From Channa argus (Eukaryota), in contig NC_090210.1 in assembly GCF_033026475.1 (NCBI RefSeq), positions 20,383,376-20,447,375 of the forward strand: 64,000 nucleotides of DNA, in the 5' to 3' direction. Position numbers and translations under genes: made by a program. This document shows, one piece after another, positions 7,165 to 54,101 of the stretch. How positions within the stretch are numbered: position 1 is the stretch's first letter; each line of letters opens with the position of its first letter. The notes beneath the pieces were generated by a model. That model saw nothing but the letters and a program-made list of their open reading frames with translations. It ran no database searches and was not told the origin of the DNA.

Positions 7165-7321
7165 ATGAACAGAGAATTAAGAAAAGCAGAAAATCTGAGA
7201 AGACATGGAGACAGAGGACAGTGGGCCAGTAAAACTGAATATATTCTGGTGGTTGCAGGAAACGTGGTCGGCCTGGGCAATGTGTGGAGATTTCCTTACC
7301 TCTGCTACAAGAATGGAGGAG
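7165..7321 (+). CDS. SLC6-A exon 1 ([23 protein letters not shown]...YKNGGG)
   Basis: ATG at 7165 preceded by cccag. Donor gtgaat at 7322. Confidence 0.8.
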
Positions 7322-10300
7322 GTGAATATTACAAAGATCAGCTGCACTTTTTTTGATGACAGATAAGTGAAAGTCATTTCCATCTGAATACATGTCTCTG
7401 TCTTCACTGTAGGTGCATTTCTGGTGCCATATGGTCTGTTGGCCCTGGTGTGTGGGATACCTCTGTTCCTAATGGAGACTTCCAGTGGTCAGTACACCCA
7501 GGAAGGATTCATCACCTGCTGGAGGAAATTGTGCCCACTGGCAGAAGGTGAGTTCGACTAAAATGTAAAACCAACAAATGAAAAGGCCTAAATTACACTG
7601 TGTATATTTACCAACCTTAAAACATAACTGACTTTCTGTTTGAACATTTTTAAAGATGAACATTTGAACATGAACATTTTTTTGAAGATTTTTAATAAAA
7701 ATGTTGTTCCAGGAATTGGGTATGGATTTTTCATGATGAAACTTTATGACTTCAGCTACATTTTAATTCAAGTCTGGGCTCTGTTCTACCTGGTGTTCTC
7801 CTTCAAAGCCCAGCTCCCCTGGGCCAGCTGTGACAACACCTGGAATACAGGTAAATTTAGACTCTAGAAATAATTTTAAATTAAAGTACTTTTAAGTAAA
7901 AGTAGTTAGAATATATAGATTTTTGTTGATGCATGTAAATACAGCATATGAGTAATAAAAGGCTAGTTATAATATGCGTGTGTACATTGTACGAATGACA
8001 GTAGTTCCACAGTAACTATTACACAATCATTCTGATTTTTTCCCAAACCCAGCTTCTTGTCTTGATCTCCAGATCCTAAATTCAACAAATGTGACAGCAA
8101 CTGCGATCAACACCACCTCTGCTGCAACTGAATTCTGGGAGTGAGTCTCATTGTGAAAATAACGTTATTTACTGTTTGTTCTACATCACTGAAGATTACT
8201 CACATTTTTGTAATATGTTATGCTGGAAATAAACTTGGAAAGAGCAATGGTTTTTTTAAATAATAATAAAAACATTTAAGTTCCATAGTTACTGAGCATG
8301 TCACATTTAGTGGATTTTTGAGGCTTTTTAAAATGTACATATTAAATATCTCCTCACCTCAGGCGACGAATGTTAGGCATGTCTGGAGGTATTGAGGAGC
8401 TGGGCAGTGTCAGATGGGAGCTGGCTTTGTGTCTTCTGGTCAGCTGGGTGTTCTGCTACTTCAGTATTTGGAAAGGTGTCAGGTCTTCTGGAAAGGTCAG
8501 TGGAAATGTTTTATGAGTTTAAAAATGCATCGCCCACTGTAAAGATTAATTAAAGTTACATATGCAGGTAAAAATGTCTACTTCTATCTAGGTAGCATAT
8601 TTCACAGCCACGTTCCCTTATGTGATGCTCCTGATACTGCTCATCAGGGGCTTGACTCTACCTGGAGCTTGGGAAGGAATCTACTTTTATCTGTATCCAG
8701 ACATAAACCACCTGGCTAACCTGGAGGTAACAAGTTTTATAGTAATATCCTAGAATTTAATGGATATGGATCAAACAAAAGTCAATTTAAAACAAACTGC
8801 TTCCATAGAAGACGATAAAAGAAGACGTTTTGGCAATTTGTGTGTCAACGAAAAGGCAGGAGGGAAAGACAAAAACCAATAATCTTAGAGATGCAACAAT
8901 CAACGATCAGATGATTCTTTTTGTTATTACAGAGAAAAAAAACATCCAACTAAATCAGGAAAACTGCCATCCACAGAGCCACACAGCTACAAAATTGAGA
9001 GCTTCTGTGTTTCTTACATTACAGGTCTGGATTGAGGCTGGATCTCAGATATTCTTCTCCTACAGTCTCACTATAGGCACCCTGAATGTTCTGGGGAGCT
9101 ACAATGACTACAACAACAACTGTTACAGGTACGTTCAGATTGCTCCAGTTTATATCACATGAACATTGGTTGTACTCTTATGTCCCTTTTCTATCTGGTC
9201 TGTCCTACCTTGACCTCTAGAGACTGCTTTTGGCTCTGTCTGCTGAACAGTGGGACCAGTTTTGTTGCTGGATTTGTAGTTTTCTCTGTACTTGGATTCA
9301 TGGCTCAGAAACAAGGTGTTAGTGTTGACAATGTGGCTGAATCAGGTATAAGTCTTCTGACATTGTGAACATTCAAACCCAAACATATATATCTACTACA
9401 TGTACATATATAGTAAATATACTATATATATACTGTATAGCATGTCACTACCAATTCTGGTGTGTAATTCTAATACACAGGTCCAGGTCTGGCCTTCATT
9501 GCTTACCCTCAGGCAACAGCTATGATGCCTTTGCCCCAGTTCTGGTCTGTCTGCTTCTTCCTGATGCTCATTCTGTTGAGTGTTGACACACATGTAAGAT
9601 TATTGGACTAATAACTGATCCATCGTACCTGAACATAGACACAGAAATCACACTAGTTGCTCGTTTCGTTCTTTCTCCAGTTTGTGACAGTAGAGAGTGT
9701 TATCACGTCTGTGAGTGACTTGTTTCCAAAGATGTTTCGTGCCCCAGTGAAGCATGAAATCTTTGTCCTCGTCATATGTTCATCTTTCTTCCTCATACAT
9801 CTCATTCTGGTAACAGAGGTAAAGAAAAGTTTGAATGAAAAATATTTCTTTTACAGTTAAAACCAAAGAAATGTTAAACTCTTTACTTTTCAAGTGCTGG
9901 CTAATATTCAGTTGTCTCTGTCCACTCTAGGGGGGAATTTATGTATTCCAACTTATAGACTATTATGGTTGCACCAGAGCCTGCCAGGACTTCATGACGG
10001 TGTGTCAATGTCTGGCTATAGGCTGGATTTTTGGTGGGTAAAATTTATTTAACAATAAACTAAATGATGCTTTTTTGGTGATGTCGTTTGACTATTCATA
10101 TATATATATAATATATATAATATGTATGTACGTACTTATATAATTTATATATAATTTACTGTTTTACTCTGCTTAACTGATCACTGCCTGTTCCTGTTAG
10201 ATTTACATTTGAATTCAATTTTCATAATAGGTAAATTAACTACGTAAACAATCTGATATTTTATCAGGTGCTGACCGGTTTTCTACCATCATTGAGGACA

Positions 10301-11264
10301 TGACAAGTCAGAAACCATCCATTTTCTTCAAACTGTGCTGGAAATACGTCATTCCTCTTCTGACCTCGGTGAGACAAAATTGAACGTCTCTTTCTTTGAA
10401 CTTTGGCATTTTATTCTGGAGTGAACTCAGGTTAGTTGTCCTTTGCTAATGCAGTGGAACTGAATTTGGTGGATTTGCATGTATCTTTCAGTTTTAGTTG
10501 GAAAAATGTCAGTAATTTCCAATAGAATTTCAAACAAATTTCATGCTCTGTAGTTATGCAATGAATTTCATTTAATAATTTACAGTTTCAGAATATAACT
10601 ATGACAGTTGAATTGTTTAAACAGATGACAGCAGATGATTTATGTACAGTGAACTTTGCTTTGTCGTTTTTACAGATTTCCTTTATCTTATACCTGGTTG
10701 ACTACCAGCATCTTAAGATCAACAACTGGTACATTTACCCTGACTGGGCGTACGCATTAGGATGGACAATGACACTTTCCTCTGTTCTCATGGTGCCACT
10801 GTGGGCAGTTGGACAGATGTGTTTGACACCAGGAACTTTCAAACAGGTCAGTGTTTAAGTAGATATTTTCCACAAAGACATAAATCACTGGAAAGCTCTG
10901 CTGGGCTTTGAGGGTTCATTTGAGAAAGGCTACACATTGATCAGACTGTAGTGGACAAAAATCCCATGAAAGCTGCTCCATAACAAAAATAGAAAAATGT
11001 GCATAGGACTACGGTGTTTCCTTATTACTTTGATTTTATGTTTACTGAACTAGAACATCCTGCAATTTCAGCAGTGGCTGAACAACATGACCTCTGTGAG
11101 AGTCACAGTTTACACATGTATTGTGGGAATTTACTCACCTTCTTCTTTTCCAGCGTTTGACAATCCTTTGTCGTCCGGTTGACAATCCAGCCTGTGAGAC
11201 GGAGAATTCAAAACAGCGAGAGGAGGGGACCACGTTGGAACTGGGGACATGCACAGAGTCCTAA
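7165..11264 (+). CDS. SLC6 family Na+/Cl- dependent transporter (GABA/taurine/creatine/betaine subfamily), copy A. Intact 14-exon gene of 583 codons
   Basis: Exon 1 has [36 protein letters not shown] (TM1 signature). EL2 has CDNTWNTASC (compare the GAT1 disulfide pair CDNPWNTDRC). Every exon aligns to TauT/GAT1/CT1 in order, for example [45 protein letters not shown] and [13 protein letters not shown]. All boundaries are GT-AG, the exon lengths sum to 1752 nt in frame, and the stop TAA is at 11262-11264. Confidence 0.85.
7413..7547 (+). CDS. SLC6-A exon 2 ([44 protein letters not shown])
   Basis: Acceptor cactgtag, donor gtgagt. Phase consistent with exon 1. Confidence 0.8.
7713..7850 (+). 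CDS. SLC6-A exon 3 ([45 protein letters not shown])
   Basis: Acceptor ttccag, donor gtaaat. Confidence 0.8.
8053..8140 (+). CDS. SLC6-A exon 4 ([32 protein letters not shown]2 with three N-glycosylation sequons)
   Basis: Acceptor aacccag at 8051-8052. The downstream acceptor at 8072 gives an in-frame stop, so the upstream AG is used. Donor gtgagt at 8141. Confidence 0.7.
8363..8495 (+). CDS. SLC6-A exon 5 ([44 protein letters not shown])
   Basis: Acceptor cacctcag, donor gtcagt. Matches TauT [44 protein letters not shown]. Confidence 0.8.
8592..8726 (+). CDS. SLC6-A exon 6 ([45 protein letters not shown])
   Basis: Acceptor tatctag, donor gtaaca. Confidence 0.8.
9025..9128 (+). CDS. SLC6-A exon 7 ([34 protein letters not shown])
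   Basis: Acceptor cattacag, donor gtacgt. Confidence 0.8.
9221..9345 (+). CDS. SLC6-A exon 8 ([42 protein letters not shown])
   Basis: Acceptor cctctag, donor gtataa. Confidence 0.8.
9481..9593 (+). CDS. SLC6-A exon 9 ([38 protein letters not shown])
   Basis: Acceptor tacacag, donor gtaaga. Confidence 0.8.
9681..9818 (+). CDS. SLC6-A exon 10 ([46 protein letters not shown])
   Basis: Acceptor ttctccag, donor gtaaag. Confidence 0.8.
9931..10033 (+). CDS. SLC6-A exon 11 ([34 protein letters not shown])
   Basis: Acceptor cactctag, donor gtgggt. The alternative donor is out of frame. Confidence 0.7.
10268..10368 (+). CDS. SLC6-A exon 12 ([34 protein letters not shown])
   Basis: Acceptor ttatcag, donor gtgaga. 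Confidence 0.75.
10676..10846 (+). CDS. SLC6-A exon 13 ([57 protein letters not shown])
   Basis: Acceptor ttttacag, donor gtcagt. Coordinates consistent with ORF track 10601-10858. Confidence 0.8.
11154..11264 (+). CDS. SLC6-A exon 14 ([36 protein letters not shown] plus stop)
   Basis: Acceptor cttttccag, TAA at 11262-11264. Confidence 0.75.
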   Translation, partial: RLTILCRPVDNPACETENSKQREEGTTLELGTCTES

Positions 11265-11579
11265 TAGTTGGACATTTCAGTTGATACATAAACTTTTGCT
11301 AATTAATAGAAGTATAAGCAGAAATACAAACTTAACTTAAAAACACTTCTATGATAAAACACCTATGATTTTTTTCAAATAAATCAAACTTTCAGTTGAT
11401 TATTTTAAGCTGTTACATTTTGAAAATGTAGTAAGGACACCCTCCTATTCAGATTTGACTTTTACATTTTGCAGGTTGGTTTGAGCCCAATTATTTATAA
11501 CGTTTCAGATGGGATACACTGGCATTTACACACTTGAAGCGCTCAGTTCTCAGGTTTTCATGTGACTTTTCTTCTCATC

Positions 11580-11760
11580 TTCTTTGCTACCTGCTGATAG
11601 TTTTAATGCGTCAGGATACTTTGGAGCATGTTTGGTGGCTTGAACATCATCTTTTCAGGTTCAGAATACGTCTCACTCTCACAGCCTCTCTCTGGCACTG
11701 TGGAAAAAAGATAATCCAGAGTCATTACATAATGCTAAATAACTAAACTAGAAATCATGC
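11580..11760 (-). pseudogene. Relic of the pold3 last coding exon (decayed duplicate)
   Basis: About 80% nucleotide identity to 36880-37010, the true pold3 last exon. Further relics at 12225-12305 (penultimate exon, resembling 37400-37470) and 12370-12485 (resembling 37540-37660). Same relative order and spacing as the real gene. Confidence 0.7.
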
Positions 11761-12224
11761 TGCAGGTTATTGAGATTTATATTATTGCGATATTTTGCTG
11801 TTTCTACAGGCATTTTTAGCATTTCCTGGTTCTTAGGGTGTATCCGGTGAAACAAACCTGTTATTTTGGACTTGACCAGAACAAATATGGCCATAGATTT
11901 GTAATGTAATAAGGTGCATCAAAAGCTCTTTAGAGAATTTTCCCTCATATACAAGTGGAAACAAAATTAGAAGCAAAAACTAAACAAATAATCATAATCA
12001 TATTCGACAGACTAATCAATATTTTTGTTATCAGTGTCATATGAAATTGTACAGTATAAATGAAAAACTAAGTATTTGCAGTGTGTTGGGGTTTTCATGA
12101 ATAAATTATATGAATATATTCATGAATAAATTATATGAACTATAAATATAACAAATGTGATTCAGTGTTAAGATGAGTTTTCAGTTAATTTTTTTCTTGC
12201 CTCGTTGTCTATAAAGGTACGTGA

Positions 12225-12485
12225 TTTGATGACTCGTCTCCTCTTCCTTGTTTTCATTTCAGAGCGACCATCATGTGGAAGGAAACCACATACACTATGA
12301 ACAAATTACATATTTCAGTGGTAAACAAAAACAACATTTAGGAATGAATGGATTGGACATTACACTTTCCAGTTTATGAATCAACACTACTATTGAGCAC
12401 TTACACATGGATGTAAAGACTCACCCTCCTTTTAAAGAATCTGGAGAAATAGTGACATGAATAGGCGACGAAGTTTTCAACTAAG
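12225..12485 (-). pseudogene. Relics of the pold3 penultimate and antepenultimate exons
   Basis: gaccatcatgtggaaggaaaccacatacactatgaacaaattacata matches gaccctgctgtggaaggaagccacatacagtatgaacaaattacata at 37420-37470. caacactactattgagcacttacacatgg matches 37548-37576. Confidence 0.6.
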
Positions 12486-12779
12486 AAAACATTGTTGGAT
12501 ATAAAAAATAAGTGACGCAAGATCTTCACCATTGTTACTATTACTTATAAATAAGGCTATATGATGCATTTTGTCGACACCCCAGGTCAGCATGGACTTA
12601 TTTGAATTTTAAGTTGCTATATTTATTATATTTATTTGTGTTGTTTTTTTCACTGCAGTTCTATTCCAGAACTGAACTGCAGTGGAAGGTGTAGACTAAA
12701 AATGCCTTGACATATTGATTTGTTATACCAGAAGCATCAGTGGTTTAATGATTAACACCTTGTAGTCTAGTACTTCCAA

Positions 12780-12960
12780 GAATCTCCAAACCTTCACAGA
12801 ATTTAGGTTAATTATAGTGACTAGCTGTGTAACCTCATATGGAGCATGACACTCCTCTCTTACCACGATGCTGCTGTGGGCAGCTGGACAGTTGTCTTTG
12901 ACATTAGGAAAGTAAGGTGTAATCAAAGTTAGAACAAAGTGTAATGTGGATTCTGTTATC
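12780..12960 (+). pseudogene. Degenerate relic of SLC6 exon 13 (penultimate exon)
   Basis: ccacgatgctgctgtgggcagctggacagttgtctttgacattaggaaag matches ccactgtgggcagttggacagatgtgtttgacaccaggaactttcaaacag. Confidence 0.55.
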
Positions 12961-13559
12961 ACAGCTTGGCAAAGAGATACCAGTTAATGCAGCAAGAAAG
13001 ATTGACATTGACACTGTTACAACTTTGAATAGTGGGGAGCGTTGGGTGAAGGGTGAGGAGGTGGGGAAGAGTGTAAGGGGCAGTGTTACTTGATGTCTTT
13101 CCCTGACAGCAGTGAAGTTCCTACTCTACAGTTACAATATTTGATCCTAAGATGAACAGAGAATTAAGAAAAGCAGAAAATCTGAGAAGACATGGAGACA
13201 GAGGACAGTGGGCCAGTAAAACCAAATATATTCTGGTTGTTGCAGGAAATGTGGCCTGAAAAAACGCCAAGCACATCAGACTTTTTATGCATCAAGAGAC
13301 TCGTATGAGAGGCTTTAGTGGAATGAACAAATAGCAATTTGGCAAGGTCATTTATTAACAACTAATCTATTGATGTGTCTTCGTTGACACATGTGAGACA
13401 CAATAACACTGACCTATCTATGTCACCATGTACTTTATCTTTGGACTCGTTAAAGTGCAACTGATATACTAAACCAAATAACATTTAGAATAAGTAACCT
13501 TAACGGTATTTAGAATTAATGCAACAAAACCCAATTTTCCATAACAAATTGTTGTTTAT

Positions 13560-13750
13560 TTATTTGGGTTGAAGGAACTTGTACTGACTCCAGGAGGGGT
13601 TATACCTCATTTATCCCCATCCCCAGCTGTGGAGTGCTGGTCCAAGCCCGGTAGAAATTGGGGAGGGTTGTGTCAGGAAGGGCATCCAGCGTAAAAACTG
13701 TGCTAAACAAACATGCTGACAAATGATCCACTGTGGCGACACTGAACTCA
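13560..13750. repeat. Teleost interspersed repeat (a second family). An inverted copy lies at 39590-39725
   Basis: ctccccagctgtggagtgctggtccaagcccgg...gggcatccagcgtaaaaactgtgctaaacaaacatgctgac...ccactgtggcgac... Reverse-complement match inside a pold3 intron. Confidence 0.6.
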
Positions 13751-13985
13751 TGGGATAAGCCGAAAGGACACCAAAAAATTATAAAAATGAGCTAGTAAAT
13801 TATCTCAAAACTAAAAACTCAAAGGTGTGTTTTCCAATACCTACTCATGTAGGGTCAGTTTTTAAAAACATGTACTAACTTCTTTCATTATAAACACACT
13901 CCATTGAGACATAACCCGGCTCTATATTCTACCTTATGTACTTCTATCCATTGACTCTGGCTTTTCTCCTGCAAACACTGTTGAT

Positions 13986-14004
13986 CTGGACCGTGTACAC
14001 ACAC

Positions 14005-14036
<32 letters not shown>
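13986..14036. repeat. (CA)n microsatellite
   Basis: Direct reading of the sequence. Confidence 0.95.
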
Positions 14037-14040
<4 letters not shown>

Positions 14041-15237
14041 CATTGACAACTATCTGGGATTGAACTGAAACTGCATTCATGTTCGCAATTCTGGATGATG
14101 CTATTATTGCTTGTTTTTGCCAAATTTCCCCTTTTTTAGGCTTTTTAAAATTTACATATACAGTATTTCTTAAACATCTCCTCACCTCAGGCGACAAGTG
14201 ACAAGGCGACCTCAGGCTTGACTCTACCTGAAGCTTGGAAAGGAATCTACTTTTATCTATCTTTTATCTGTATATTTACTGTTTGTTCTAGATCACTGAA
14301 GATTCCTCACATTTTTGTAATATGTTATGCTGGGAATAAACTTGGAAAGAGCAATGGTTTTTTTAAATAATAATAAAAACATTTAGGTTCCATAGTTACT
14401 GAGCATGTAACATTTAGTGGATTTTTGAGGCCTTTTAAAATGTACATATTAAATATCTCCTCACCTCAGGCTCATCAGGGGCTTGACTCTACCTGTAGCT
14501 TGGGAAGGAATCTACTTTTATCTGTATCCAGACATAAAACACCTGGCTAACCTGGAGGTAAAAAGTTTTATGGTAATATCCTAGAATATAAGGAATTTGG
14601 ATCAAACAAAAGTCAATTTAAAACAAACTGCTTCCATAGGACATATATAAAAGAAGACGTTTTGGCAATTTGTGTGTCAAGCCAAAAACCAGGAGGGAAA
14701 GACAAAAACCAATAATCTTAGAGATGCAACAATCAACGATCAGATGATTCTTTTTGTTATCACAGAGAAAAAAAAACATCCACCTAAATCAGCAAAACTG
14801 CCATCCACAGAGCCACACAGCTACAGAAATTGAGAGCTTCTGTGTTTCTTACATTACAGGTCTGGATTGAGGCTGGATCTCAGATATTCTTCTCCTACAG
14901 TCTCACTATAGGCACCCTGAATGTTCTGGGGAGCTACAATGACTACAACAACAACTGTTACAGGTACGTTCAGATCGCTCCAGTTTATATCACATGAACA
15001 TTGGTTGTACTCTTATGTCCCTTTTCTATCTGGTCTGTCCTACCTTGACCTCTAGAGACTGCTTTTGGCTCTGTCTGCTGAACAGTGCGACCAGTTTTTT
15101 TGCTTGATTTGTAGTTTTCTCTGTACTTGGATTCATGGCTCAGAAACAAGGTGTTAGTGTTGACAATGTGGCTGAATCAGGTATAAGTCTTCTGACATTG
15201 TGAACATTCAAACCCAAACATATATATCTAGTACATG

Positions 15238-15268
<31 letters not shown>

Positions 15269-15692
15269 TGTATAGCATGTCACTACCAATTCTGGTGTGT
15301 AATTCTAATACACAGGTCCAGTCCTGGTCTGTCTGCTTCTTCCTGATGCTCATTCTGTTGAGTGTTGACACACATGTAGGATTATTGGACTAAAAACTGA
15401 TCCATCGTAGCTGAACATAGACACAGAAATCACACTAGTTGCTCGTTTCGTTTTTTCCCCAGTTTGTTACAGTAGAGAGTGTTATCACATCTGTGAGTGA
15501 CTTGTTCCCCCAGATGTTTCGTGCCCCAGTGAAGCATAAAATCTTTGTCCTCGTCATATGTTCATCTTTGTTCCTCATACATCTCATTCTGGTCACAGAG
15601 GTAAAGAAAGGTTTAAATTAAAAATATTTCTTTTACAGTTAAAACCAAAGAAATGTTAAACTCTTTACTTTTGAAGTGCTGGCTAATATTCA

Positions 15693-18082
15693 TAGGAGCA
15701 AGGTTCAAGTTGTTCTACCATGGGTCAGATAGGAAAAGAAATGGAGTAGGAGTTATCCTGAAAGGAGTTTTTGAGGAATGTTCTAGAGGTGAACAGAATA
15801 TCAGACAGGTTGATCTGATACTGGAAAGTCTGAAGCTGGAAACTGAAGGTGTTATGTTTAATGTTGTGAGTGGTTATGCCCCACAGGTAGGACGTGAGTG
15901 AGAAGAGAAGGAGAAATTCATGAGTGAGTTAGATGAAGTGATTCAGAACATTCCCAGAGGTGAGAGAGTGGTGATTGGGGCAGATTTCAATAGACATGTA
16001 GGTGAAGTGAACAGAGGTGATGAGAATTTGATGGGCAGGTTTGGTCTTCAGGACAGGAACGCAGAAGGACAAATGGTGGTAGACTTTGCAAAGAGGATGG
16101 AAATGACTGTAGTAAACACTTTCTTCCAGAAGAGGCAGGAACATAGGGTGACGTATAAGAGCGGAAGTAGAAGCACTCAGTTGGACAACATCTTGTGTAG
16201 ACGTTGTAATCTGAAAGAGACCAGTGACTGTAAAGTATTGGTAGGGGAGAGTGTAGCCAGACAACACAGGATGGTGGTGTGTAAAATGATGCTGGTGGTG
16301 AGGAAGATAAGGAGGACTAAGGCAGAGCAGAGGACGAAGTGGTGGAAGTTGAAAAAGGAAGAATGTTGTGTAGTTTTCAGGGAGGAACTGAGACAGACTC
16401 TGGGTGGTCAGGAAGTGCTCCCAGATGACTGGACCACTACAGCTAATGTGATCAGGGAGACAGGTAGGAGGGTACTCTGGGTGTCATCTAGAAAGAGGAA
16501 AGTGGACAAGGAGATTTGGTGGTGGAACGAGGAAGTTCAGGAGTGTATTCAGAGAAAGAGGTTAGCTAAGAAGAAGTGGGACACTGAGAAGACTGAAGTA
16601 GACAGAAGTACAGGGAGATATAGCGTAAGGTGAAGGTAGAGGTGGCAAATTCCAAACAAAGGGCATATGAGGACTTGTATGTTAGGTTGGACACTAAGGA
16701 GGGAGAGGTGGATTTGTACAGGTTGGCCAGACAAAGAGATAGAGATGGGAAGGATGTGCAGCAGGTTAGTGTGATTAAAGATAAGGATGGAAATGTATTG
16801 ACAGGTGCCAGGAGTTTGATGGGAAGATGGAAGGATTGATGAATGAGGAAAATGAAAGGGAGAGTGAGAGTGAAGTGAGGAGGAGGTTGAAGAGGATGAA
16901 GAGTGGAAAGGCAGTTGGTCCTGATAACATACCTGTGGAGGTATGGAAGTGTCTAGGAGAGGTGGCAGTAGAGTTTCTCACTAGTTTGTTTAACAAGATC
17001 TTGGAGAGTGAGAGGATGCCCGAGGACTGGAGGAGAAGTGTACTGGTGCCCATTTTTAAGAAACAGGGAGATGTGCAGAGCTGTGGCAGCTACAGAGGAA
17101 TAAAGCTGATGAGCCACACAATGAAGTTGTGGGAAAGAGTAGTGGAAGCTCGGCTAAGGGCAGAGGTGAACATTTGTGAGCAGCAATATGGTTTCATGCC
17201 TAGAAAGAGTACAACAGATACAGTATTTGATTTGAAGATGCTGATGGAGAAGCACAGAGAAGGTCACAGAGAGTTGCATTGTGTCTACGTAGATTTAGAG
17301 AAAGCGTATGACAGGGTGCCGAGAGAGGAGCTGTGGTTTTGTATGAGGACGTCTGGAGTGGCAGAGAAGTATGTTAGAGTGGTGCAGGACATGTATGAGA
17401 GCTGTAAGACCGTGGTGAGGTGCTGTAGGTGTGACAGAGGAGTTCAAGGTGGAGGTGGGTCTGCATCAAGGATCTGCTCTGAGCCCCTTCTTGTTTGCTC
17501 TGGTGATGGACAGGCTGACAGATGAGGTTAGACAGGAATATCTGTGGACTATGATGTTTGCAGATGACATTGTGATTTGTAGTGAGAGCAGGGAGCAGGT
17601 GGAGGAAAATCTAACAGTGAGAATGAAAGGAAAGATGTTCAAGACGGTGGTGAGACCAGAGATGTTGTTCGGCTTAGAGACAGTGGCACTGAAGAAAAGA
17701 CAGGAGGCAGAGCTGGAGGTAGCAGAGCTTAAGATTTTGAGGTTCTCTTTGGGAGTGACGAGGATGGACAGGATCAGGAATGAGGACATCAGAGGGACAG
17801 CTCATGTTAGATGTGTTGGAGATAAAGTCAGAGAGGCCAGAATGAGGTGGTTTGGACATGTTCAGAGAGACTGTGAATATATCGGTAGAAGGATGCTGAG
17901 GTTGGAGCTGCCAGGCAGGAGGTATAGAGGAAGATCAAAGAGGAGATTAATGGATGTAGTGAGAGAGGACATGAAGTTAGTTGGTGTGTTTGAAGCGGAT
18001 GCAGAGGACAGGGTTAGATGGAGGCACATGATTTGCTCTGGAGACCCCTGAAAGGGAACAGGCCAAGGAAAAGAAGAAGATT
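15693..18082 (+). mobile_element. 5'-truncated non-LTR retrotransposon (apurinic-endonuclease plus reverse-transcriptase LINE, RTE-like or related), frameshifted
   Basis: ORFs 15920-16633, 16827-17525 and 17431-18051. Endonuclease-like VIGADFNRHVGE. RT motifs KSGKAVGPDNIPVEVWK, YGFMPRKSTTD, HCVYVDLEKAYDRV, QGSALSPFLF and FADDIVIC. C-terminal MRWFGHVQR...PGRRYRGRSKRRLMDV. The junctions fall exactly where homology to copy A is lost (15692) and regained (18083). Confidence 0.75.
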
Positions 18083-20134: not shown

Positions 20135-20300
20135 TTATCGTTTGAACATTCTCCATTTTGAACAAAGAAAACAAAGGTGGACATACAAAAATAAGTGACT
20201 CACCACCTTCATCACTGCTGTCCCTGGGTGAGATTTCTTAGCTCTTCTTCTTTCCTCCTCTTTGCTGTCAGAATCCTCTATTCGTTTTGCTTCAAAGATA
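20135..20300 (-). pseudogene. Relic of the pold3 acidic/basic exon (true exon at 38646-38749), frameshifted
   Basis: Minus-strand ...EDSDSKEEERRRAKK... matches pold3 ...EDSDSEEEKMEKKKRRRIKK.... The flanking intron sequence also matches (gtgactcacc). A 2-bp insertion breaks the frame. Confidence 0.65.
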
Positions 20301-20439: not shown

Positions 20440-20560
20440 CCTGTATATCCTGTCCCTCAGATTTCTTTTATCTTGCACCTTGTTACATCAAGTCTGGGCT
20501 CTCTTCTACCTGGAATGCAGGTAGAATTGTAAACTAATGAGAACTAAAAGCAGTTATACA
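20440..20560 (+). pseudogene. Chimeric SLC6 relic (exon 13 start fused to the exon 3 end and intron 3)
   Basis: cagatttcttttatcttgcaccttgttac matches the exon 13 start. caagtctgggctctcttctacctgg...aatgcaggtagaattgtaaactaatgagaactaaaagcag matches 26930-27060. Confidence 0.5.
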
Positions 20561-22500: not shown

Positions 22501-22519
22501 TCATTTCAAAATCAATGTG

Positions 22520-26350: not shown

Positions 26351-26357
26351 TCCCAAG

Positions 26358-29300
26358 ATGAACAAAGAATTACGAAAAAGAGAAAATGTGAGAAGACATG
26401 GAGACAGAGGACAGTGGGCCAGTAAAACTGAATATATTCTGGTGGTTGCAGGAAACGTGGTCGGCCTGGGCAATGTGTGGAGATTTCCTTACCTCTGCTA
26501 CAAGAATGGAGGAGGTGAATATTACAAAGATCAGCTGCACTTTTTTTGATGACAGATAAGTGAAAGTCATTTCCATCTGAATACATGTCTCTGTCTTCAC
26601 TGTAGGTGCATTTCTGGTGCCATATGGTCTGTTGGCCCTGGTGTGTGGGATACCTCTGTTCCTAATGGAGACTTCCAGTGGTCAGTACACCCAGGAAGGA
26701 TTCATCACCTGCTGGAGGAAATTGTGCCCACTGGCAGAAGGTGAGTTCGACTAAAATGTAAAACCAACAAATGAAAAGGCCTAAATTACACTGTGTATAT
26801 TTACCAACCTTAAAACATAACTGACTTTCTGTTTGAACATTTAAACAAAGATTTTTAAAAAATTGTTGTTCTAGGAATTGGGTATGGATTTTTCATGATG
26901 AAACTTTATGACTTCAGCTACATTTTAATTCAAGCCTGGGCTCTGTTCTACCTGGTGTTCTCCTTCAAAGCCCAGCTCCCCTGGGCCAGCTGTGACAACA
27001 CCTGGAATACAGGTAAATTTAGACTCTAGAACCAATAGTAAACTAATGAGAACTAAAAGTAGTTGTAATATGTTGTTAAATGTTAATGTACAGCTTACAG
27101 TTAAATGTGAAAAAATACAACATATCACTACTGAAAAAAATAACTGTCCTTTAACAAGTGAAATTAGTTTAAAAAAAGAAATTAGTTTTAGCAGACAACT
27201 GTCGACTCTCAAGTATTAGTGTGTGTATTGTATGAATGCCAGCGATTCAACATTAACTATTACTAACTATTATTTGTTCCCAAACCCAGCTTCATGTCTT
27301 GATCTACAGATTTTAAATTCAACAAATGTGACAGCGAATCAGACCAACACCACCTCTGCTGCAACTGAATTCTGGGAGTGAGTCTCATTAATGATGGAAT
27401 GTTAATTACTTTATAACCACTTCACTTTTTATGCATTGAAGATGATTCTGCACTCGTACAGTTTGCTCTCTGGAGATGATTTAGAAATCGGTAATAATAC
27501 CGTAAACGCAAACTGTTACTTTGTTATGATGTTACTGCAAATTGTTTATAGCGCAGAGTTACACATGGGCCAGTATATTACACACAATCAACATTAAGGA
27601 AACACAAATAAACAGATACCACATGAACTAAAACATTAACTCATTAAAAACAATACGTGCAAGCTTCCCTACACTTGCCAGATCCAGGAAATCCGCCCAC
27701 AGCAATTCATGCATTGGCTTGTTCACATATGTGTTTCATAATGGATACACACGGACTGACCCCATGGATGTATGTTTTTTCTTGAGTCTGCATGCCCTGC
27801 TCTGTGGTGCATGTGCACACACACATTAAAAAGTCAAACGCATGAAAAACTGTGACAGTAGCCGTGCAGAAATCCACTGCTATAGAAGAAATCCAAATTT
27901 TTACAAATGTCCAGAAGCCATGAATTGACACATAAGTACTGAAAATAACTGTGTTTACCCGCGGGAGCTGGCGAAGTGTTATTGTAAAAGGCAACTAACT
28001 TTAGATTTTAAACTGCTCAAATTCATGTTTATCTACCTAAACTTAACTTGAGTTACATCAGAAAGGCTTTAATCATCCCATAGAGTATATTGTGATTGAA
28101 TTACACGTGCTACTTACCTGTTTCAGACAGGAAAAAGTGGAGACAGGAGACGGTACTAATGTCTGTCTAATCAGGCTGTTTCTCTGTCTAAGAAGCAACT
28201 GGTGCTCACTTTGGTAAATACTCGTCCACCTTGGTTGCGTAATTTGGAAATTCTTGTCTGTCTGATGGAAGCTTGTACATATAGTTTTAAATCACTCACA
28301 ACTGGCTGGGATTGAACTGAAAACTGCAATGAGCTTTACTTTTTAATAATAATAGCATTTCAAGTCCACAATGACTGAGCATGTCACATGTAGTGGAAAA
28401 AATGTTTACTCTTGTTTTATGCATGTAGCCAAGCGTCTTTGAGTTAACATAAAGTGTTTAATCTGTCAATTCCGGAAGCTGTTGCTATTGGTTTTGTCAA
28501 ATTGTGCCTCTTTTCAGGCTTTTTAAAATGTACATATTAAATATCTCCTCACCTCAGGCGACGGATGTTAGGCATGTCTGGAGGTATTGAGGAGCTGGGC
28601 AGTGTCAGATGGGAGCTGGCTTTGTGTCTTCTGGTCAGCTGGGTGTTCTGCTACTTCAGTATTTGGAAAGGTGTCAGGTCTTCTGGAAAGGTCAGTGGAA
28701 ATGTTTTAAGAGTTTAAAAATGCCTCGCCCACTGTAAACGTTAATTAAAGTTACATATGCAGGTAAAAATGTCTACTTCTATCTAGGTAGCATATTTCAC
28801 AGCCACGTTCCCCTATGTGATGCTCCTGATACTGCTCATCAGGGGCTTGTCTCTACCTGGAGCTTGGAATGGAATCTACTTTTATCTGTATCCAGACATA
28901 AAACACCTGGCTAACCTGGAGGTAACAAGTTTTATGGTAATATCCTAGAATTTAATGAGTGTAGGTGAAAAACCTCCAATAGAACAATCAGAGAATAACG
29001 CAGGCCAGAAAGACGTATTCACAAACATTTATATAAAATTTATTGAAAATACATTGGTTGATCAATTGATTGATTACAAAACTTCACTCTGGACCAATTG
29101 AATATCAAATTAATATTGCCCTCCCTAGAGCCACACAGCTACAGCAACTTTTGAGCTTTTATTTTTTGAACATTGCAGGTCTGGATAGAAGCTGCATCTC
29201 AAATATCCTTCTCCTACAGTCTCACAATAGGCACCCTGACTGTTCTGGGGAGCTACAATGACTACAACAACAACTGTTACAAGTACGTTCAGATTGCTCC

Positions 29301-32300
29301 AGTTGATATAACATGAACATTTGTAAATTCTATGTTGTTATTTTGGCAAATTCTTAAATGTGACGAATAGACTCTTGTCTGTCTTACCTTGACCTCTAGA
29401 GACTGCTTTTGGCTCTGTCTGCTGAACAGTGCGACCAGTTTTGTTGCTGGATTTGTAGTTTTCTCTGTACTTGGATTCATGGCTCAGAAACAAGGTGTTA
29501 GTGTTGACAATGTGACTGAATCAGGTATAAGTCTTCTGACATTGTGAACATTCAAACCCAAACATATATATCTACTACATGTACATATATAGTAAATATA
29601 CTATATATATACTGTATACCATGTCACTACCAACTCTGGTGTGTAATTCTAATACACAGGTCCAGGTCTGGCCTTCATTGCTTACCCTCAGGCAACAGCT
29701 ATGATGCCTTTGCCCCAGTTCTGGTCTGTCTGCTTCTTCCTGATGCTCATTCTGTTGAGTGTTGACACACATGTAAGATTATTGGACTAATAACTGATCC
29801 ATCATAGCTGAACATAGACACAGAAATCACACTAGTTGCTCGTTTCGTTGTTTCCCCAGTTTGTAACAGTGGAGACTGTAATCACGTCTGTGAGTGACTT
29901 GTTTCCAAAGATGTTCCGTGCACCAGTGAAGCATGAGATCTTTGTCCTCGTCATATGTTCATCTTTCTTCGTCATACATCTCATTCTGGTCACAGAGGTA
30001 AAGAAAATATACACCCCAATTAAAAAAAAGTTGAAAAAAAAAATTGTAAAACTTTTGTTTTTACAATTTATTTATTTATTTACAATAGAACATAAACAAA
30101 ATATCATTTCATGCAAAATATTAGCCCATTTTGAATTTGATGGCAGCCACACAACTCAAAAAAGTTAACAAAAGGCAGGAAAAGTAATTGCTGCAAATAA
30201 CAAAACAAATGGAGGAGCATTTGACATCGATTTAGATTGATTGTCAACAGGTCAGTAACATGACTGGTTATAAAAGGAACATTTCAGAGAGGCAGAATCT
30301 GGAATGTAAAGATGGGCCAAGGTTCACCAATCTGAGACAAACTGTGTCTAAAAATTGTGGAACGAGTTAAAAAATGTTTGACATAAAATTGCGAAGACTT
30401 TGAAGATCCCAACATCTACAGTATTTAATGTCATCAAGATCATCAAGGTGTTGAACTGGTCTGCCTGTTGTCCATCACTAAAAAGAAAACTCAACAAAGG
30501 CTCAGGACTGTTGAGCAGCTTCTTGAATCTTGCATCAGGCAAGAATGAGACAACATTTGTCTCCTAAACTCCAGTAACTGGTCTCCTCACTTTCCAGACA
30601 TTTACAGACAGTTGTTAAAAGAAGAGGGGATGCTGCGTAATGATAAACTGATAAAATCATTCCAACTTTTTTGAGAAGTGTGGCTGTCATCAAATTCAAA
30701 ATGAGCTAATACTTTCCATGAGATGTTTAAATGTCTCAGTTTCAACATCTGATATCATTGCATTCCGTTTTTATTTACACTGTACACATCGTCCCAACTT
30801 TTTTTTGAATTGGGGTTGTAGAACAATTTTTACAGTTTAAACCAAATAAATGTTAAACTTTTTATTTTTCAAAATGCTAGACATTTTTCATATGTTGTCT
30901 CTCTTTACTTTAGGGGGGGATTTATGTATTCCAGCTTATAGATTATTACGGTTGTACCAGAGCCTGCAAGGATTTTATGACGATTTGTCAATGCCTGGCT
31001 ATAGGCTGGATTTTTGGTGAGTAAATTTCACGTAACAATGGACTAAATTATGTTTTGGATAATGTGATTTGACTTTTCATATGACATTTTTACAGATAAA
31101 GAGCAAGTGCATCCTGTTCTCTCAGTTTGGGGTTGTGTGGTGAACCAGAAATATACAATTGGGTGTCATCTGCATAAACTGACATTTTGATCACTGATAA
31201 TCAGATAGCAATGATTAATTTAAATAGGATGAAAATGGTAACTGTTGCAGTATTGGATGGCATAATGTTGGGTCACTTAACAATTCCTGTACCACACAAT
31301 GAAAACACTGTGCAGTCAAAGTGCAATGAAGGGTGAATGCCGTATTATAGGTACTGTCCTGGAAAGTTAATATGCGTGTAGATTAGAATGCAAGGAGCTT
31401 CCTCCAGTCCACCCGTTTCTGTGGATTTCTACAAGGCCTAAGGTTAGCTCCCTTTTTAAAGCAAGAAAATCAGTACAACAACAAGATTTGACGTGTCAGC
31501 ATTGGAACAGTTTGCATTATAAATATATGTTCAAGCTGCTCCCCAATAGGTCAACACTTCTAGACAAACAACACCCTTCTTTTATTTCAAAATGGCAAGT
31601 TTCACTGAAAAGTAAACATTTTGGAACTATGAATCTTAAATTCTATCAGGTGCTGACCGTTTTTCTACCATCATCGAGGACATGACAAGTAAGAGACCCC
31701 CAGTTTTTTTCAAACTGTGCTGGAAATACATCATTCCTCTTCTGACCATGGTGAGCAAAAATATGTTTATGTAAATCATGTTTGGCTTATCCCATTTTCT
31801 TTTATTTGGCATTTTATTCTGGGGTAAACTCAAATTTCTCATCCACTGTCTATGCAGTACAGTTGACCTTGGCTGATTTGCATCCATCTTCTAGCCTTAG
31901 TTGGTAAACTGTCATTGTAAATTCCAGTAGAATTTTAAATAAATGTCATGCTTTTTATTTTTACAGATTTCTTTTACCTTGTACCTGGTTCATTACAAGC
32001 ATTTTAGGATTAACAACTGGTACATTTATCCTGACTGGGCGTACACATTAGGATGGATGATGACACTTTCCTCTGTGCTCATGGTGCCACTATGGGCAGT
32101 TAGACAGATGTGTTTGACACCAGGAACTTTCAAACAGGTCAGTATTCAAGTAGAGATTTTACTGCAAAGTCAAAAATCAAGAGACAGGTCTGCTGGGTTT
32201 TGAGGGTTTATTTGATAGAGGGCCACACATTGAATAGGATGGAACAGAGAAAATTTGGTTGAAAGTTGGTAAATAATTAAAATTAAATTTTAAAAAAGAG

Positions 32301-35300
32301 GGTTAAATGCTGGTGTTTAGCCCACAAATTGTATTTCTATTTATATGTAGGCAGTGGCAGCTGGTCCAGAAGTAAGTAACCATAAATAAAAAAATACAAT
32401 CTGTTTACAGCCCCAGTTCCACTCTATGAAATCACTACATATGAAACCGATTTCATAGATTAGCTAAATATAGCTGTCTTCTGTACACATTGTATTCATG
32501 TTAAAGCAGTTTCCGTGCATCCTCAACGTCCAAAACATCTGAAGCATGGTGCTGCAGATGTTGAAGGATCTTAGTCTCCTTAGAAAATACAGCCTGCTCT
32601 GTGTTTTCCTGTATATTGATGGTGCATTAACTGACCAGTCCAGCTTATTGTTCAGGTGTACACCCAGGTATTTGTACTCTGAAACTACGTCCATCTTTAC
32701 CGATGCTGAGCTGGAGATGATTGTGCTCACACCAGTTAACAAAACTGTCCACCTCTGATGGATACTCCGTAATATCTCCACCCTCGTTACATCCAACAAC
32801 TGACAGAGTCATCAGAAAACATCTGAAGGTGGCAGGACTCTGAGTTGTACCTGATGACAGAGGTATACAGGGTGAAGAGAAAGGGAGATAGGACTGTCTA
32901 TTAGGGAGAACCTGTGCTGCAATGTCTCAGACACACAGCTCTGAGATGGACAGACTGGGGTGGGGCTGTGAGGTAATCCAATATCCAGCCAATCATGGGG
33001 GTGACCACGAGCATGCTCATTAATTTCTCCCCTAGAAGGACAGGCTGGATTGTGTTAAAAGCACTGGAGAACTCAAAGAACATAATCCTCACAGACCCCC
33101 CCCCCAGGCTTGTCCTGCTTGGTGTAGATGCAGTGTAGCAGGTAGATGCGAGCATCCTCCACCCCCAGCTGATGCTCAAAAGTAAACTGGACGGGGTCCA
33201 GAAATGGTTTCACCAGGGGCCTGAGGAAGTCCAGGACCAGTCTCTCCAACACTTTCATGATGTGGGAGGTTAGAGCCACATCACTGGGGACACTGGGGCG
33301 GGCTACTTTTGGTACTAGCAGCAGGCATGTTGTTTTCCATCCCACAGGCGTCCTCTCCAGCTGCAGGCTCAGATGTGCTTATGGATGCCACATAGCTGTG
33401 GGGCACAGGCTTTCAGTAGCCTGGGCCTGACTCCATGAGGACCTGTAGACTATGTGGGGCAAAGCCTGCTTAGCTCTCTCCTCACCTGCTCAGCTCTCTC
33501 CTCATCTGCTCTGCTGAGATAGTCATTGCTGCAGAGACAGGAGTGGTGTCCAAGTCAGGCAGGGGTGAGATGTGGGCAGCTGTCGTGAAGCTCCTTGGGG
33601 GGGGTGGATATAAAATCATCAAATCTATTGCTTTAGCTCTATTTACACTCCCCTCTGCCCATTGCCTGCTGGTCTTATATCAAGTGATGCTTTTTATGCC
33701 ACTCCAAACTGCTCTGGTATCCTTCTGTTAGAGCTTCCTCATGTAAGCCTCCTTCCCCTCTTTGATATTTACCAGCGGGCACTCTGGACTTCCCTCTGTG
33801 CTTCCCTGTCACCTGACCTGAAGGTTGCCTTCTTCTCATTCAGGATTAATTCAATGTCTTTCGTGGCCCTAGCAGCGGACAGTTTTTGTTGGTATACAGA
33901 TGCCAACACAAAAGTTGATGTAATCTGTAATGCAGCCTGTCAATCCATCAATGTCCTCACCATGTATCTCACAGACTGTTTTCCAATCCGTGGCTTCAAA
34001 ACATCCCTGCAGTGGCCCTCTCAGACCACCGTTTACTGTTTTGGTGGAGGGAGGCTGCCTTTGAACCTTACATACAGGCAGGAGGTGGGTCAGCTTGTGG
34101 TCAGACCTGGCCCGGGGCAGAAGGGAAGAAGAGCTGTAGGCCTTTTTAACATTTGAGTACATCAGGTCCAGTTTCTTCTCCCCCCTTGGTGTGACTATCC
34201 ACATACTCTGAGAGGGTGGGGAGGGTCTTGGAGAAGTCACGGGAGATCATAAAGAGGGCATCTGGATGTCGGGTCAGGAGTCTGGCTGCGATCGAGTTTA
34301 TGTTGTCACATGTGCCATCAATATCGACGTGTCGGGCAAACTGTCCTACAGCGATGTCTCCGTGAAACACATTCAACTAAAGTCTGGAAAGATACTATCC
34401 TTCCTCACCAGTGCAGTCAACTCGTCCACCTTGTTCTCCAGAGACCTCACGTTGCGCATAATCAGAGATGGAAGATGCGGGCGGCTTAAATCTTCTCTGA
34501 ATCTTCTTTTCCACTGCTCCTTTTTACCAGCTCTGTGATCTCTCGCTGTTTTCCCTTATTTCGTACGGTATGTTTAAAGTCCGAACGAAAACTCCCTCTA
34601 CAAATGATCAGAGAGGATAAGCTTTACACAGCGAAGTGACACTTTACTATACTAAAATACAACAGTAAATATGAAAAGGGAAAAATAAATTACAAGAAAA
34701 GGAGGGCAACTGCAACAGGCGGTGTCTCGGCTCACACCTGCGCATATGTTTTAGCTAACTCCATTTGTCAAAAGAAGAGCTGGAGCAACTCAGGTGGAGC
34801 TTGTCCTTCATCACAAGCATACTGCTGTATCCCAGCTTCTTTATCCTCATTTTTCTTCTGGTAAACCATTTGGACTTTGTTTTTGGTGGCTTCTTCTTCT
34901 CCTGCAGCAACATTCGCGAGCTGCTGAGCTGCAGCAATATTCGGACTAATGTAGTTACCATGGGTGGGACATAGAGAGACAGAGCATACAACTGTCCAAC
35001 CACAGGAACATTAAACCCATGTTTATTGGCTTTGGTTCAATAATCTCTGCACCCTGTGGAAAATCCTGAAGCTGTCAATCAGAGCGTAGCTTCAGGTCAC
35101 GATTGTTAAGCGTCCACAGGGTCACATACGCACCTTGTACAAAGTAGACAGAATCATTCAGATTTAGCTAGTTTTTTAAAAATCATTTTAAATAAATGCT
35201 ATCATGTGCAAAGTAAGATTAAACTGTGTTAAATGTATTTTTTTTCATATAGAATTTATTTTTCACAAATTTAAAGGACTTCAGTCATTTTTCTAAAATA

Positions 35301-35799
35301 ATTATATTGTCTATAATTACCATACAGATTCTAAAGCCAATGTTGAACATTCTTTATTCACCTTATTTGGTATATGAGCAAATACAGGCTGCAGGCTGAC
35401 AACCAACCATAGCATCGGTATGGTGATTGGCGATTTTCTAAGTTAATTGTATTGTTTACAAAGTTATCCTACTGTTAATTAAAGGGGGTGGTACCCCAGT
35501 GCCCCCCAGTAACCACCCGCCACTGGGGTTAAGGACTTAACTGCCGCAGCCCTGCTTATTGCAAAATAATATGAACTGCTAGGCTTAAAAAAAAACCTTT
35601 ATACAAGTCATAGTATTTTATTTTTTATATTTAATGTGTATTAGACACTCTGAATGAAGTCTAACAGACATTGCTTAGGCTATGTGTGAGACAAATTACA
35701 GTATTATGGAAGTTTATATACCTGGTTTCTTTTCAGCGTTTGAAAATCCTTTGCCATCCAATTGATCCAGCCTTGCAGATGGAGATCAGAAATCATTGA
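26358..35799 (+). CDS. SLC6 family transporter copy C, 14 intact exons and about 567 codons, with a shortened C-terminal tail
   Basis: Exons: 26358-26514, 26606-26740, 26875-27012, 27290-27377, 28558-28690, 28787-28921, 29179-29282, 29400-29524, 29660-29772, 29860-29997, 30914-31016, 31650-31750, 31967-32137 and 35737-35799. All splice sites are GT-AG with consistent phases. About 95% amino-acid identity to copy A, with exon 2 identical. TGA at 35797-35799 where copy A has CGA. Confidence 0.8.
30020..30830. mobile_element. Non-autonomous Tc1/mariner element with long (over 150 bp) terminal inverted repeats, inserted in intron 10 of SLC6-C
   Basis: Left end ...ttcatgcaaaatattagcccattttgaatttgatggcagccacacaactcaaaaaagttaac. 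Right end reverse complement ctcatggaaagtattagctcattttgaatttgatgacagccacacttctcaaaaaagttgg. The internal segment encodes [21 protein letters not shown], a Tc1/mariner transposase HTH region. The corresponding copy A intron is only 112 bp. Confidence 0.7.
32460..34400 (-). mobile_element. L2/CR1-clade LINE fragment (endonuclease C-terminus plus reverse transcriptase), degenerate, in intron 13 of SLC6-C
   Basis: Minus-strand ORFs encode ...[20 protein letters not shown]...[33 protein letters not shown]..., [43 protein letters not shown] and [14 protein letters not shown]...[22 protein letters not shown]. These are characteristic of fish L2-type LINEs. Confidence 0.7.
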
Positions 35800-54075: not shown

Positions 54076-54101
54076 AAAAAAAAAAAAAAAAAGCAGACTC
54101 T
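54076..54101. repeat. poly(A) tract
   Basis: Direct reading of the sequence. Confidence 0.9.

Follow-up and report, generated by a model that had tools for sequence, protein, structure and literature searches.

Among the SLC6 transporters, BGT1 holds the amine of gamma-aminobutyric acid (GABA) or betaine through a glutamate in the first transmembrane helix (TM1). This residue, E52 in BGT1 and E66 in GAT3, forms a salt bridge with the amine and is conserved in GAT2, GAT3 and BGT1 (PMC13381564). In BGT1, E52 and Q299 together hold the ammonium group, and the double mutant abolishes transport (PMC13381564). TauT binds the amine of taurine through E406 in TM8. In the genome, GAT3 is linked to SLC6A1 and SLC6A6 (PMC3849432). 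Here we analyse a window of 64,000 nucleotides (nt) of Channa argus (NCBI RefSeq assembly GCF_033026475.1, contig NC_090210.1, positions 20,383,376 to 20,447,375 of the forward strand), in which a self-comparison revealed three head-to-tail SLC6 units on the + strand, referred to as A, B and C, beside pold3, the gene of DNA polymerase delta subunit 3. We consider it very likely that the locus represents an array of tandem copies from an unnamed SLC6 lineage specific to fishes, which lies beside pold3 in Acanthomorpha and has the history and function set out below. Our literature search found no published description of an SLC6 gene beside pold3, and a 2026 survey of trout SLC6 genes, which reports 16 members, does not treat this pold3-linked clade.

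Two intact SLC6 genes flank a pseudogene

The exon borders of A and C were set by hand from stop-to-stop reading frames and AG/GT splice sites. An earlier note, written from the letters of this DNA, had placed three copies of a 14-exon gene here, with intact genes of 583 and 567 amino acids (aa) on both sides of a pseudogene. Our models agree with it exactly in position, exon number and protein length.

7165-11264, + strand: copy A, intact SLC6 gene, 583 aa; 14 hand-built exons, all AG/GT, open coding sequence of 1752 nt
7165-7321, 7413-7547, 7713-7850, 8053-8140, 8363-8495, 8592-8726, 9025-9128, + strand: copy A, exons 1-7
9221-9345, 9481-9593, 9681-9818, 9931-10033, 10268-10368, 10676-10846, 11154-11264, + strand: copy A, exons 8-14 (stop included)
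13152-18743, + strand: copy B, pseudogene, from exon blastn/tblastn matches and base-level alignments
13152-13254, 14215-14258, 14470-14557, + strand: copy B, exon 1 nt 1-103, stray fragment of exon 6, exon 6 nt 48-135
14860-14963, 15056-15180, 15318-15375, 15463-15600, + strand: copy B, exon 7, exon 8, exon 9 nt 56-113, exon 10
18155-18325, 18633-18743, + strand: copy B, exons 13 and 14
26358-35799, + strand: copy C, intact SLC6 gene, 567 aa; 14 hand-built exons, all splice sites intact
26358-26514, 26606-26740, 26875-27012, 27290-27377, 28558-28690, 28787-28921, 29179-29282, + strand: copy C, exons 1-7
29400-29524, 29660-29772, 29860-29997, 30914-31016, 31650-31750, 31967-32137, 35737-35799, + strand: copy C, exons 8-14 (stop included)

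The protein of A is identical to Channa argus RefSeq XP_067331655.1 and that of C to XP_067331319.1, and both entries carry the name 'sodium- and chloride-dependent GABA transporter 3-like'. Against the Pfam profile SNF (PF00209, cut-off 27), A scores 683.5 bits (E 2.7e-205) and C scores 682.6 bits (E 5e-205), and each covers positions 1-522 of 524. The SLC6 assignment, for which the earlier note had demanded a full-length alignment, is thus confirmed. The TM1 motif NVWRFPY is present twice in the window. Of 1695 aligned coding sites, about 93 distinguish A from C, a nucleotide identity of about 94.5%; the earlier figure of about 95% applies at this level, whereas the proteins are 93-94% identical.

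Copy B carries multiple lesions. Its match to exon 1 ends after nt 103, and the TM1 core is lost. Exon 6 lacks the first 47 nt and exon 9 the first 55 nt, exon 8 has a GGA to TGA nonsense change, and exons 2-5, 11 and 12 are absent in the exon blastn/tblastn searches. At the place of exons 11-12 we find a fragment of a long interspersed nuclear element (LINE, a retrotransposon without long terminal repeats), which accounts for the purine-rich GC-skew peak (0.52) at 16-18 kb. On the other hand, the 3' end of B is nearly identical to A, while the remainder of B shows 91-97% identity to A. We read this 3' block as a recent tract of gene conversion or re-copying.

15692-18075, + strand: LINE fragment of 2.4 kb in copy B; RVT_1 at E 1.4e-15 and 6.5e-11, weak Exo_endo_phos_2
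18080-18830, + strand: block nearly identical to A (end of intron 12, exon 13, intron 13, exon 14, start of the 3' flank), 99.5% over 745 nt to 10601-11345

We also notice a stranded 26-nt fragment of exon 3 at 20488-20513 (+ strand, 96% identical), in the B-C spacer and far from the other pieces of B. It is probably debris of the rearrangements that broke up B.

The introns of the two intact genes differ greatly in length. Intron 4 measures 1180 nt in C and 222 nt in A, and intron 13 measures 3599 nt in C and 307 nt in A; in C, intron 13 is swollen by a LINE-like fragment. The label of this fragment comes from reading its peptides, as the two open reading frames (ORFs) that were scanned gave no Pfam match.

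32467-34555, - strand: LINE-like fragment in intron 13 of copy C; endonuclease/reverse transcriptase-like ORFs by eye, local GC content 46%

Near-identical repeats, such as the 745-nt block of exons 13-14 in B, are prone to assembler error, and the copies could in principle be duplicated haplotigs or a mis-joined collapsed repeat. The units, however, differ in structure, as seen in introns 4 and 13 of A and C and in the 2.4-kb LINE present in B alone, and the window has no N runs. The synonymous divergence (dS) of 0.31 between A and C in exons 10-14 lies far beyond allelic variation. In addition, the independent assemblies of Channa striata, Betta splendens and Polymixia lowei hold two tandem copies beside pold3. 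These findings largely refute the concern of the earlier note about an assembly artefact, which we regard as extremely improbable. The repeats themselves stand far above chance, with E values of 1e-25 to 1e-89 in exon-level blastn within the 64-kb window.

A pold3-linked clade apart from the named transporters

Many acanthomorph fishes have homologues with 72-93% identity, often in several copies per chromosome, which carry automatic names such as 'GAT3-like', 'betaine transporter-like' and 'GAT2-like'. About 14 protein clusters are found on one chromosome in Antennarius striatus and 7 in Brachionichthys, and several homologues in each of Thunnus, Scomber, Dicentrarchus and Mastacembelus. At least three SNF genes lie within the 25 kb examined in Antennarius. 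The gene order is kinesin-SNF-SNF-pold3 in Betta splendens and pold3-SNF-SNF in Polymixia lowei, an early-branching acanthomorph. The earlier note had proposed a lineage-specific expansion; this holds for copy B only, as two copies beside pold3 are also present in C. striata, B. splendens and P. lowei.

A second family of about 580 aa, referred to as clade X, ranges from eels and bonytongues to percomorphs under the automatic name 'GABA transporter 2-like'. It adjoins cipc in Betta and Scleropages, and in Conger conger it forms an array of 3 SNF genes in a 33-kb locus. Expansion in copy number is therefore recurrent in the pold3-linked and the cipc-linked clades, and the conger array is independent. 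Clade X may be the zebrafish slc6a22.1/.2 pair, which would fit with the two members that Danio aesculapii has on a single chromosome. In the literature searched, slc6a22 appears by name in four papers, without sequences.

We calculated a neighbour-joining tree from 542 core columns with 300 bootstraps. The outgroups were human GAT3 and human TauT (both taken from PDB alignments), BGT1, GAT2, CT1, GAT1 and fish slc6a13-like sequences. The pold3-linked clade and clade X are each recovered at 100% bootstrap, and together with one divergent sequence of Takifugu flavidus they split from all named paralogues, again at 100%; the branching among the named paralogues is weakly defined. Copy A shares 62-64% identity with clade X and 54-59% with GAT3, TauT, BGT1 and GAT2. 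The earlier assignment to the GABA/taurine/creatine/betaine branch of SLC6 is thereby supported, as is the remark that no named SLC6 paralogue can be assigned. By this tree, the RefSeq name 'GABA transporter 3-like' expresses similarity and not orthology.

The divergent T. flavidus sequence (493 aa) is sister to the pold3-linked clade at 93% bootstrap. It has His at the position of E66 and GLDTT in TM8, and its model is without parts of exons 2 and 10. Either a rapidly evolving member or a third lineage is conceivable.

High-scoring sequences of sturgeon and Bagarius were considered as distant members and rejected, since they are fused GAT2-type models with repeated segments. They therefore give no evidence for a clade older than teleosts. 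Cluster representatives at 50% identity, retrieved with copy C as the query, were likewise discarded for the tree. The SLC6 branch collapses at this level, the best matches were fused tandem models or fragments, and ten representatives carried generic names only.

Ion sites are conserved while the substrate pocket is changed

To compare the binding sites, we surveyed 112 pold3-linked and 109 clade-X members in the numbering of human GAT3, with residue roles taken from PMC12019481 and PMC13381564. The equivalents of N72, S309 and N341 (Na1), D409 (Na2) and Y92, Q305, S309 and S345 (Cl-) are invariant or nearly so in both clades. The same holds for the gate arginine (R75) and for G71 and Y147, which contact the substrate carboxylate. 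S410 is replaced by a conservative Thr in A and C, and the gate aspartate is present in 'FQLIDYY' in the alignment with GAT3. At 54-59% identity to solved structures, the proteins are expected to adopt the LeuT-type fold of 12 helices. From the conserved ion-site residues we infer an ordinary Na+/Cl--coupled symporter of the alternating-access type.

The pocket differs in three respects. First, an acidic partner for the amine is missing in TM1 and TM8. The position of E66 is N33 in A and C, and it is Asn in 86 of the 112 family members and in clade X. Second, one residue of TM3 is deleted just before the substrate tyrosine in all 112 pold3-linked members, but not in clade X; the deletion places D110 (present in 65 of 112) three residues, or one turn, from this tyrosine. 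Third, the turn of TM8 at the Na2 and substrate sites reads [ST]VDTHF in the pold3-linked clade, in place of GLDSQF, and H376 is found in 109 of 112. A and C bear all marks of the clade, that is the position in the tree, the adjacency to pold3, the TM3 deletion and the [ST]VDTHF motif. The short N-terminus pointed out in the earlier note is real and family-wide, with a median of 16 residues before the gate arginine among the 112 relatives and 14 in clade X, against 49 in human GAT3.

The automatic names suggest a simpler explanation, in which A and C are extra copies of GAT3 (or of BGT1 or GAT2) that carry GABA or betaine. Human GAT3 is indeed the best match among solved structures (residues 15-555, E 3e-210, 702.8 bits), followed by BGT1 with 682.5 bits. 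The absence of the TM1 glutamate is also compatible with GABA transport, as GAT1 likewise lacks it and has Tyr there. In contrast, the tree separates the clade from human GAT3 (SLC6A11) with 100% bootstrap, and the identity of 54-59% to the named carriers stays below the 62-64% to the cipc-linked clade. E66 is replaced by N33, Q299 of BGT1 by Ile and E406 of TauT by Thr. In synteny, the genes go with pold3 and not with SLC6A1/SLC6A6 or SLC6A12/SLC6A13 (PMC3849432): pold3 is the sole neighbour identified in the window, and the loci of C. striata, Betta and Polymixia gave the same result. We find it quite unlikely that A and C are such copies.

We therefore return to a separate lineage. A and C are most likely working 12-helix Na+/Cl- symporters with the mechanism of GAT3, BGT1 and TauT, as predicted from their residues; they would be expressed and probably import a small organic solute across the plasma membrane. 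Since the acidic amine-binding residues of the GABA, betaine and taurine carriers are absent, the substrate is probably recognised in another way. Positions equivalent to 66, 143, 146, 314 and 414 of human GAT3 vary between paralogues. It is possible, and we suggest it tentatively, that the pold3-linked genes form an SLC6 subfamily with a rebuilt pocket, which moves something besides GABA, betaine, taurine and creatine, and that the arrays diversify the pocket to widen the range of substrates.

Gene conversion keeps exons 1-9 alike in an old gene pair

The locus of C. striata holds two intact genes, S1 (592 aa) and S2 (584 aa), followed by pold3; our comparison extends to about 44.7 kb of the window. 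Within a species (A-C and S1-S2), exons 1-9 are 96-100% identical, except exon 4 (90%) and exon 7 (92%) of A-C, whereas between the two species all pairs of these exons show 86-98% identity, mostly 89-95%. The downstream exons follow another pattern. In exon 12, A groups with its orthologue S1, and C likewise with S2. Exon 14 of A is closer to S1 (86.5%) than to C (82.5%), and the blastn matches around exon 14 are specific to the orthologues (A-S1, C-S2). The same break is evident in dS, which between the species amounts to 0.32-0.54 over all pairs and regions.

A versus C: dS 0.049 in exons 1-9, 0.31 in exons 10-14
S1 versus S2: dS 0.019 in exons 1-9, 0.41 in exons 10-14
Orthologous pairs A-S1 and C-S2: dS 0.36 over the whole coding sequence

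The similar tracts of A and C span introns, with 98.8% identity over 7155-7649 and 97.3% over 8316-8762, and introns 1 and 5 are 97-99% identical. The near-identity of these introns indicates that the similarity of A and C results from conversion and not from selection on the coding sequence. By these comparisons, exons 1-9 of A and C have been homogenised by gene conversion, with a sharp boundary around exons 9-10.

The orthologous pattern of exons 12 and 14, together with dS, indicates that the duplication into A and C is at least as old as the split of C. argus and C. striata. B is of the A type and absent from C. striata, and it is therefore younger than the A/C pair. We propose that an old tandem duplication gave the upstream copy A and the pold3-proximal copy C before this split. 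Since then, gene conversion within each species would repeatedly have homogenised exons 1-9, leaving exons 10-14 free to diverge. In the lineage of C. argus, a unit of the A type was presumably copied once more to form B, which would have decayed by deletions, the nonsense mutation and the LINE insertion and lately had its 3' end overwritten from A.

Both genes are under purifying selection against their counterparts in C. striata. The ratio of nonsynonymous to synonymous divergence (omega) is 0.075 for A-S1 and 0.11 for C-S2, and it stays at 0.075-0.15 against the orthologues even in the unconverted exons 10-14.

In C. striata, we also observed an extra partial exon 1 (nt 1-54, 94%) at locus position 1305-1358, some 150 bp before the first exon of S1, which has no counterpart in C. 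argus.

The repeat unit carries a piece of pold3

The adjacency to pold3 named in the earlier note is evident from PF09507 (CDC27) matches on the - strand next to C, at 36769-37008, 40056-40484 and 40619-40969. C and pold3 stand tail to tail, with stop codons about 1 kb apart (35799-36766). The first exon of pold3 reads MDELYLDNIDEF (42336-42446, - strand), and the last exon encodes the C-terminal PIP-box QASIMGFF. Relics of this last exon and of the last intron recur behind A and B.

36766-42446, - strand: pold3 (DNA polymerase delta subunit 3); PF09507 CDC27 on three exons, collinear with the annotated pold3 of C. striata
11554-11739, - strand: relic of the last exon of pold3 after A, 85% to the real exon at 36830-37013
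11811-11956, 12202-12433, 12474-12534: pieces of the last intron of pold3 after A, by sequence match
21723-21851, - strand: second relic of the last exon of pold3, in the B unit, 91% to the relic of A and 80% to the real exon

Downstream of A, a copy of the 3' flank of C is followed by the pold3 exon relic and then by the intron pieces. The exon relic has a 2-bp insertion, and its PIP-box end is destroyed. In the B unit, the material from the pold3 side appears in rearranged order, at 18823-18974, 20156-20287 and the exon relic 21723-21851. These relics indicate that the duplicated unit began upstream of exon 1 and reached about 2 kb into pold3. Because C adjoins the real pold3, it is C that stands at the original position.

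Relics of exon 13 lie upstream of B and C, two of them within a local duplication of the B-C spacer.

12826-13028, + strand: exon-13 relic about 0.2-0.8 kb upstream of B exon 1, by sequence alignment to exon 13
22528-23224 versus 25071-25834, + strand: local duplication in the B-C spacer, 97% identical
about 22890-23060, + strand: exon-13 relic in the first copy of the local duplication, by alignment
about 25500-25670, + strand: exon-13 relic in the second copy of the local duplication, by alignment
25872-25961, + strand: short extra tandem copy of the relic, 0.4 kb upstream of C exon 1 (repeat family D15)

All four align to exon 13, two of them including the acceptor region. They are degenerate: the best 74 nt show about 78% identity to exon 13, and the relics are 67-69% identical to one another. 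The four share changes found in no functional exon 13, for example CTCTTACCAC in place of CTGTTCTCATGG and ATTAGGAA in place of ACCAGGAAC. These shared changes, and the presence of two relics within the 97% local duplication, suggest that all four descend from a single old relic travelling with the unit. The four relics of the earlier note are thus real, but they are re-copies of one, and the several lost units deduced from them do not follow; they point to one older partial copy at most. A has no such relic because it ceases to resemble B and C some 20 bp before the ATG. A search of the C. striata spacer for exon-13 relics found none.

Alternative histories and the state of the two genes

Several observations weigh against the reading given so far, and we consider them together here. 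In C. striata, the search of the spacer yielded no pold3 relic, so that an old origin of the unit requires its loss there. This would be expected if the A/C pair came from a recent duplication in C. argus alone, with C. striata and Betta duplicated separately and without any gene conversion. Whole-protein trees, which group the paralogues by species (A with C, S1 with S2, the Betta pair at 100%), also favour this history. However, one recent event cannot yield dS values of 0.05 and 0.31 in the same gene pair, and orthologous pairing is seen in exon 12 for both pairs, in exon 14 for A-S1 and in the sequence that flanks exon 14. Moreover, the grouping by species receives just 43-53% bootstrap in Channa. 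A private duplication is in our view very unlikely, and we prefer the old duplication with later conversion.

Other points concern the genes themselves. Copy C has a premature TGA at a codon that is Arg in S2 of C. striata. About 17 residues of the tail are cut off, and the homologous codons are still readable downstream. With changes polarised by C. striata as the outgroup, exons 1-9 have gained 14 nonsynonymous and 5 synonymous substitutions on the C branch since the last conversion (omega about 0.8, on small counts), and 3 of each on the A branch. Ahead of its ATG, A matches B and C over just about 20 bp and has lost the upstream sequence common to B and C. These features, together with the introns of C swollen by transposable elements, would suit a history in which C, or both copies, are unexpressed and early in decay, with reading frames kept open by conversion repair. 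Against this, omega of 0.075-0.15 even in the unconverted exons means that the genes were constrained over most of their history. The substitutions in C fall mostly at sites that vary among the 112 relatives (the site of F272S, for example, is F, C or L), the splice sites are intact, and RefSeq predicts both genes as protein-coding. We find early decay rather unlikely. Copy C is probably functional, as judged from its sequence, and may be under relaxed constraint.

In addition, the tree is by neighbour-joining only and several outgroup sequences are partial, and the TM3 deletion lies beside the substrate site.

Other features of the window

Farther upstream, A is preceded by transposon debris. 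Fragments of Tc1/mariner-type transposases, with weak DDE_3 matches below the Pfam cut-off, lie at 1856-2188 and 4823-5206 (+ strand), and similar fragments occur in the B-C spacer at 21183-21365 (- strand), 22195-22491 (+ strand) and 23989-24180 (+ strand). These fragments account for the repeat families D4 and D16 and for the missing shared promoter sequence upstream of A.

The 3' untranslated regions (UTRs) of C and pold3 may meet or run into each other, so that the termination of transcripts or the regulation of the two genes could be linked. On the 5' side of pold3, close to its first exon, positions 43654-43902 form a conserved block (92% to C. striata) that may be a promoter or 5' UTR.

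Among the ten longest ORFs in 45000-64000, there was no credible Pfam match, and the final 19 kb yielded no identified gene. This part contains a perfect compound microsatellite at 55052-55142, (TC)18.5 followed directly by (TA)27.5. Rfam and tRNA scans of the window gave no matches.

Discussion

Both genes are already predicted in RefSeq, and a normal tandem family with one dead member will not surprise a specialist. The practical value is modest and lies mostly in annotation. In dozens of fish genomes, genes of this lineage are named GABA transporter 3-like, betaine transporter-like or GABA transporter 2-like, and they are orthologues of none of these carriers. With the wrong orthology and the substrate-holding residues missing, function cannot safely be transferred by name, for instance when expression is studied in osmoregulation or neurotransmission. 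The locus also offers a clean, small case of concerted evolution, in which converted exons 1-9 stand next to diverging exons 10-14. If the subfamily does have its own substrate, the vertebrate SLC6 repertoire would gain a member absent from mammals.

Comparison with known systems

Human GAT3 (SLC6A11; 9lk7/9cp4) shares with A and C the SNF architecture, the Cl- site Y92/Q305/S309/S345, the Na1 and Na2 residues, the gate arginine and the carboxylate-binding tyrosine. It differs in its identity of 54.5%, its separate clade, its chromosomal neighbours and an N-terminus about 33 residues longer than here. Residue E66 of human GAT3 is N here, C316 is T, G407 is S, L408 is V and Q411 is H; one residue of TM3 is deleted. 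In human BGT1 (SLC6A12; 9lnm and others), the carboxylate framework G57 and Y133 and the Na1 site correspond to conserved residues here, but E52 and Q299 are N33 and I279, which speaks against orthology to BGT1. Human TauT (SLC6A6; 9kmj/9jcz) belongs to the same branch at 54.3% identity and, like A and C, has no glutamate in TM1 (Gly in TauT). However, the residue aligned with its E406 in TM8 is T379 in A and C, and the pold3-linked family has T, I, A or S there, which is equally at odds with orthology to TauT.

Clade X is the closest group. It has in common with the pold3-linked genes the short N-terminus, the Asn at the position of E66 and the tandem arrays. In contrast, it neighbours cipc, occurs in all sampled teleost groups including eels and bonytongues, and has a TM3 of normal length and GLDTQF in TM8.

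As a multigene family, the locus resembles those that evolve by birth and death combined with gene conversion: its units are arranged head to tail, one member has decayed, conversion tracts extend over introns, and the copy number varies between lineages. Nothing in it is unusual for the birth-and-death model; its specific detail is that the unit carried along the 3' exon of a neighbouring gene.

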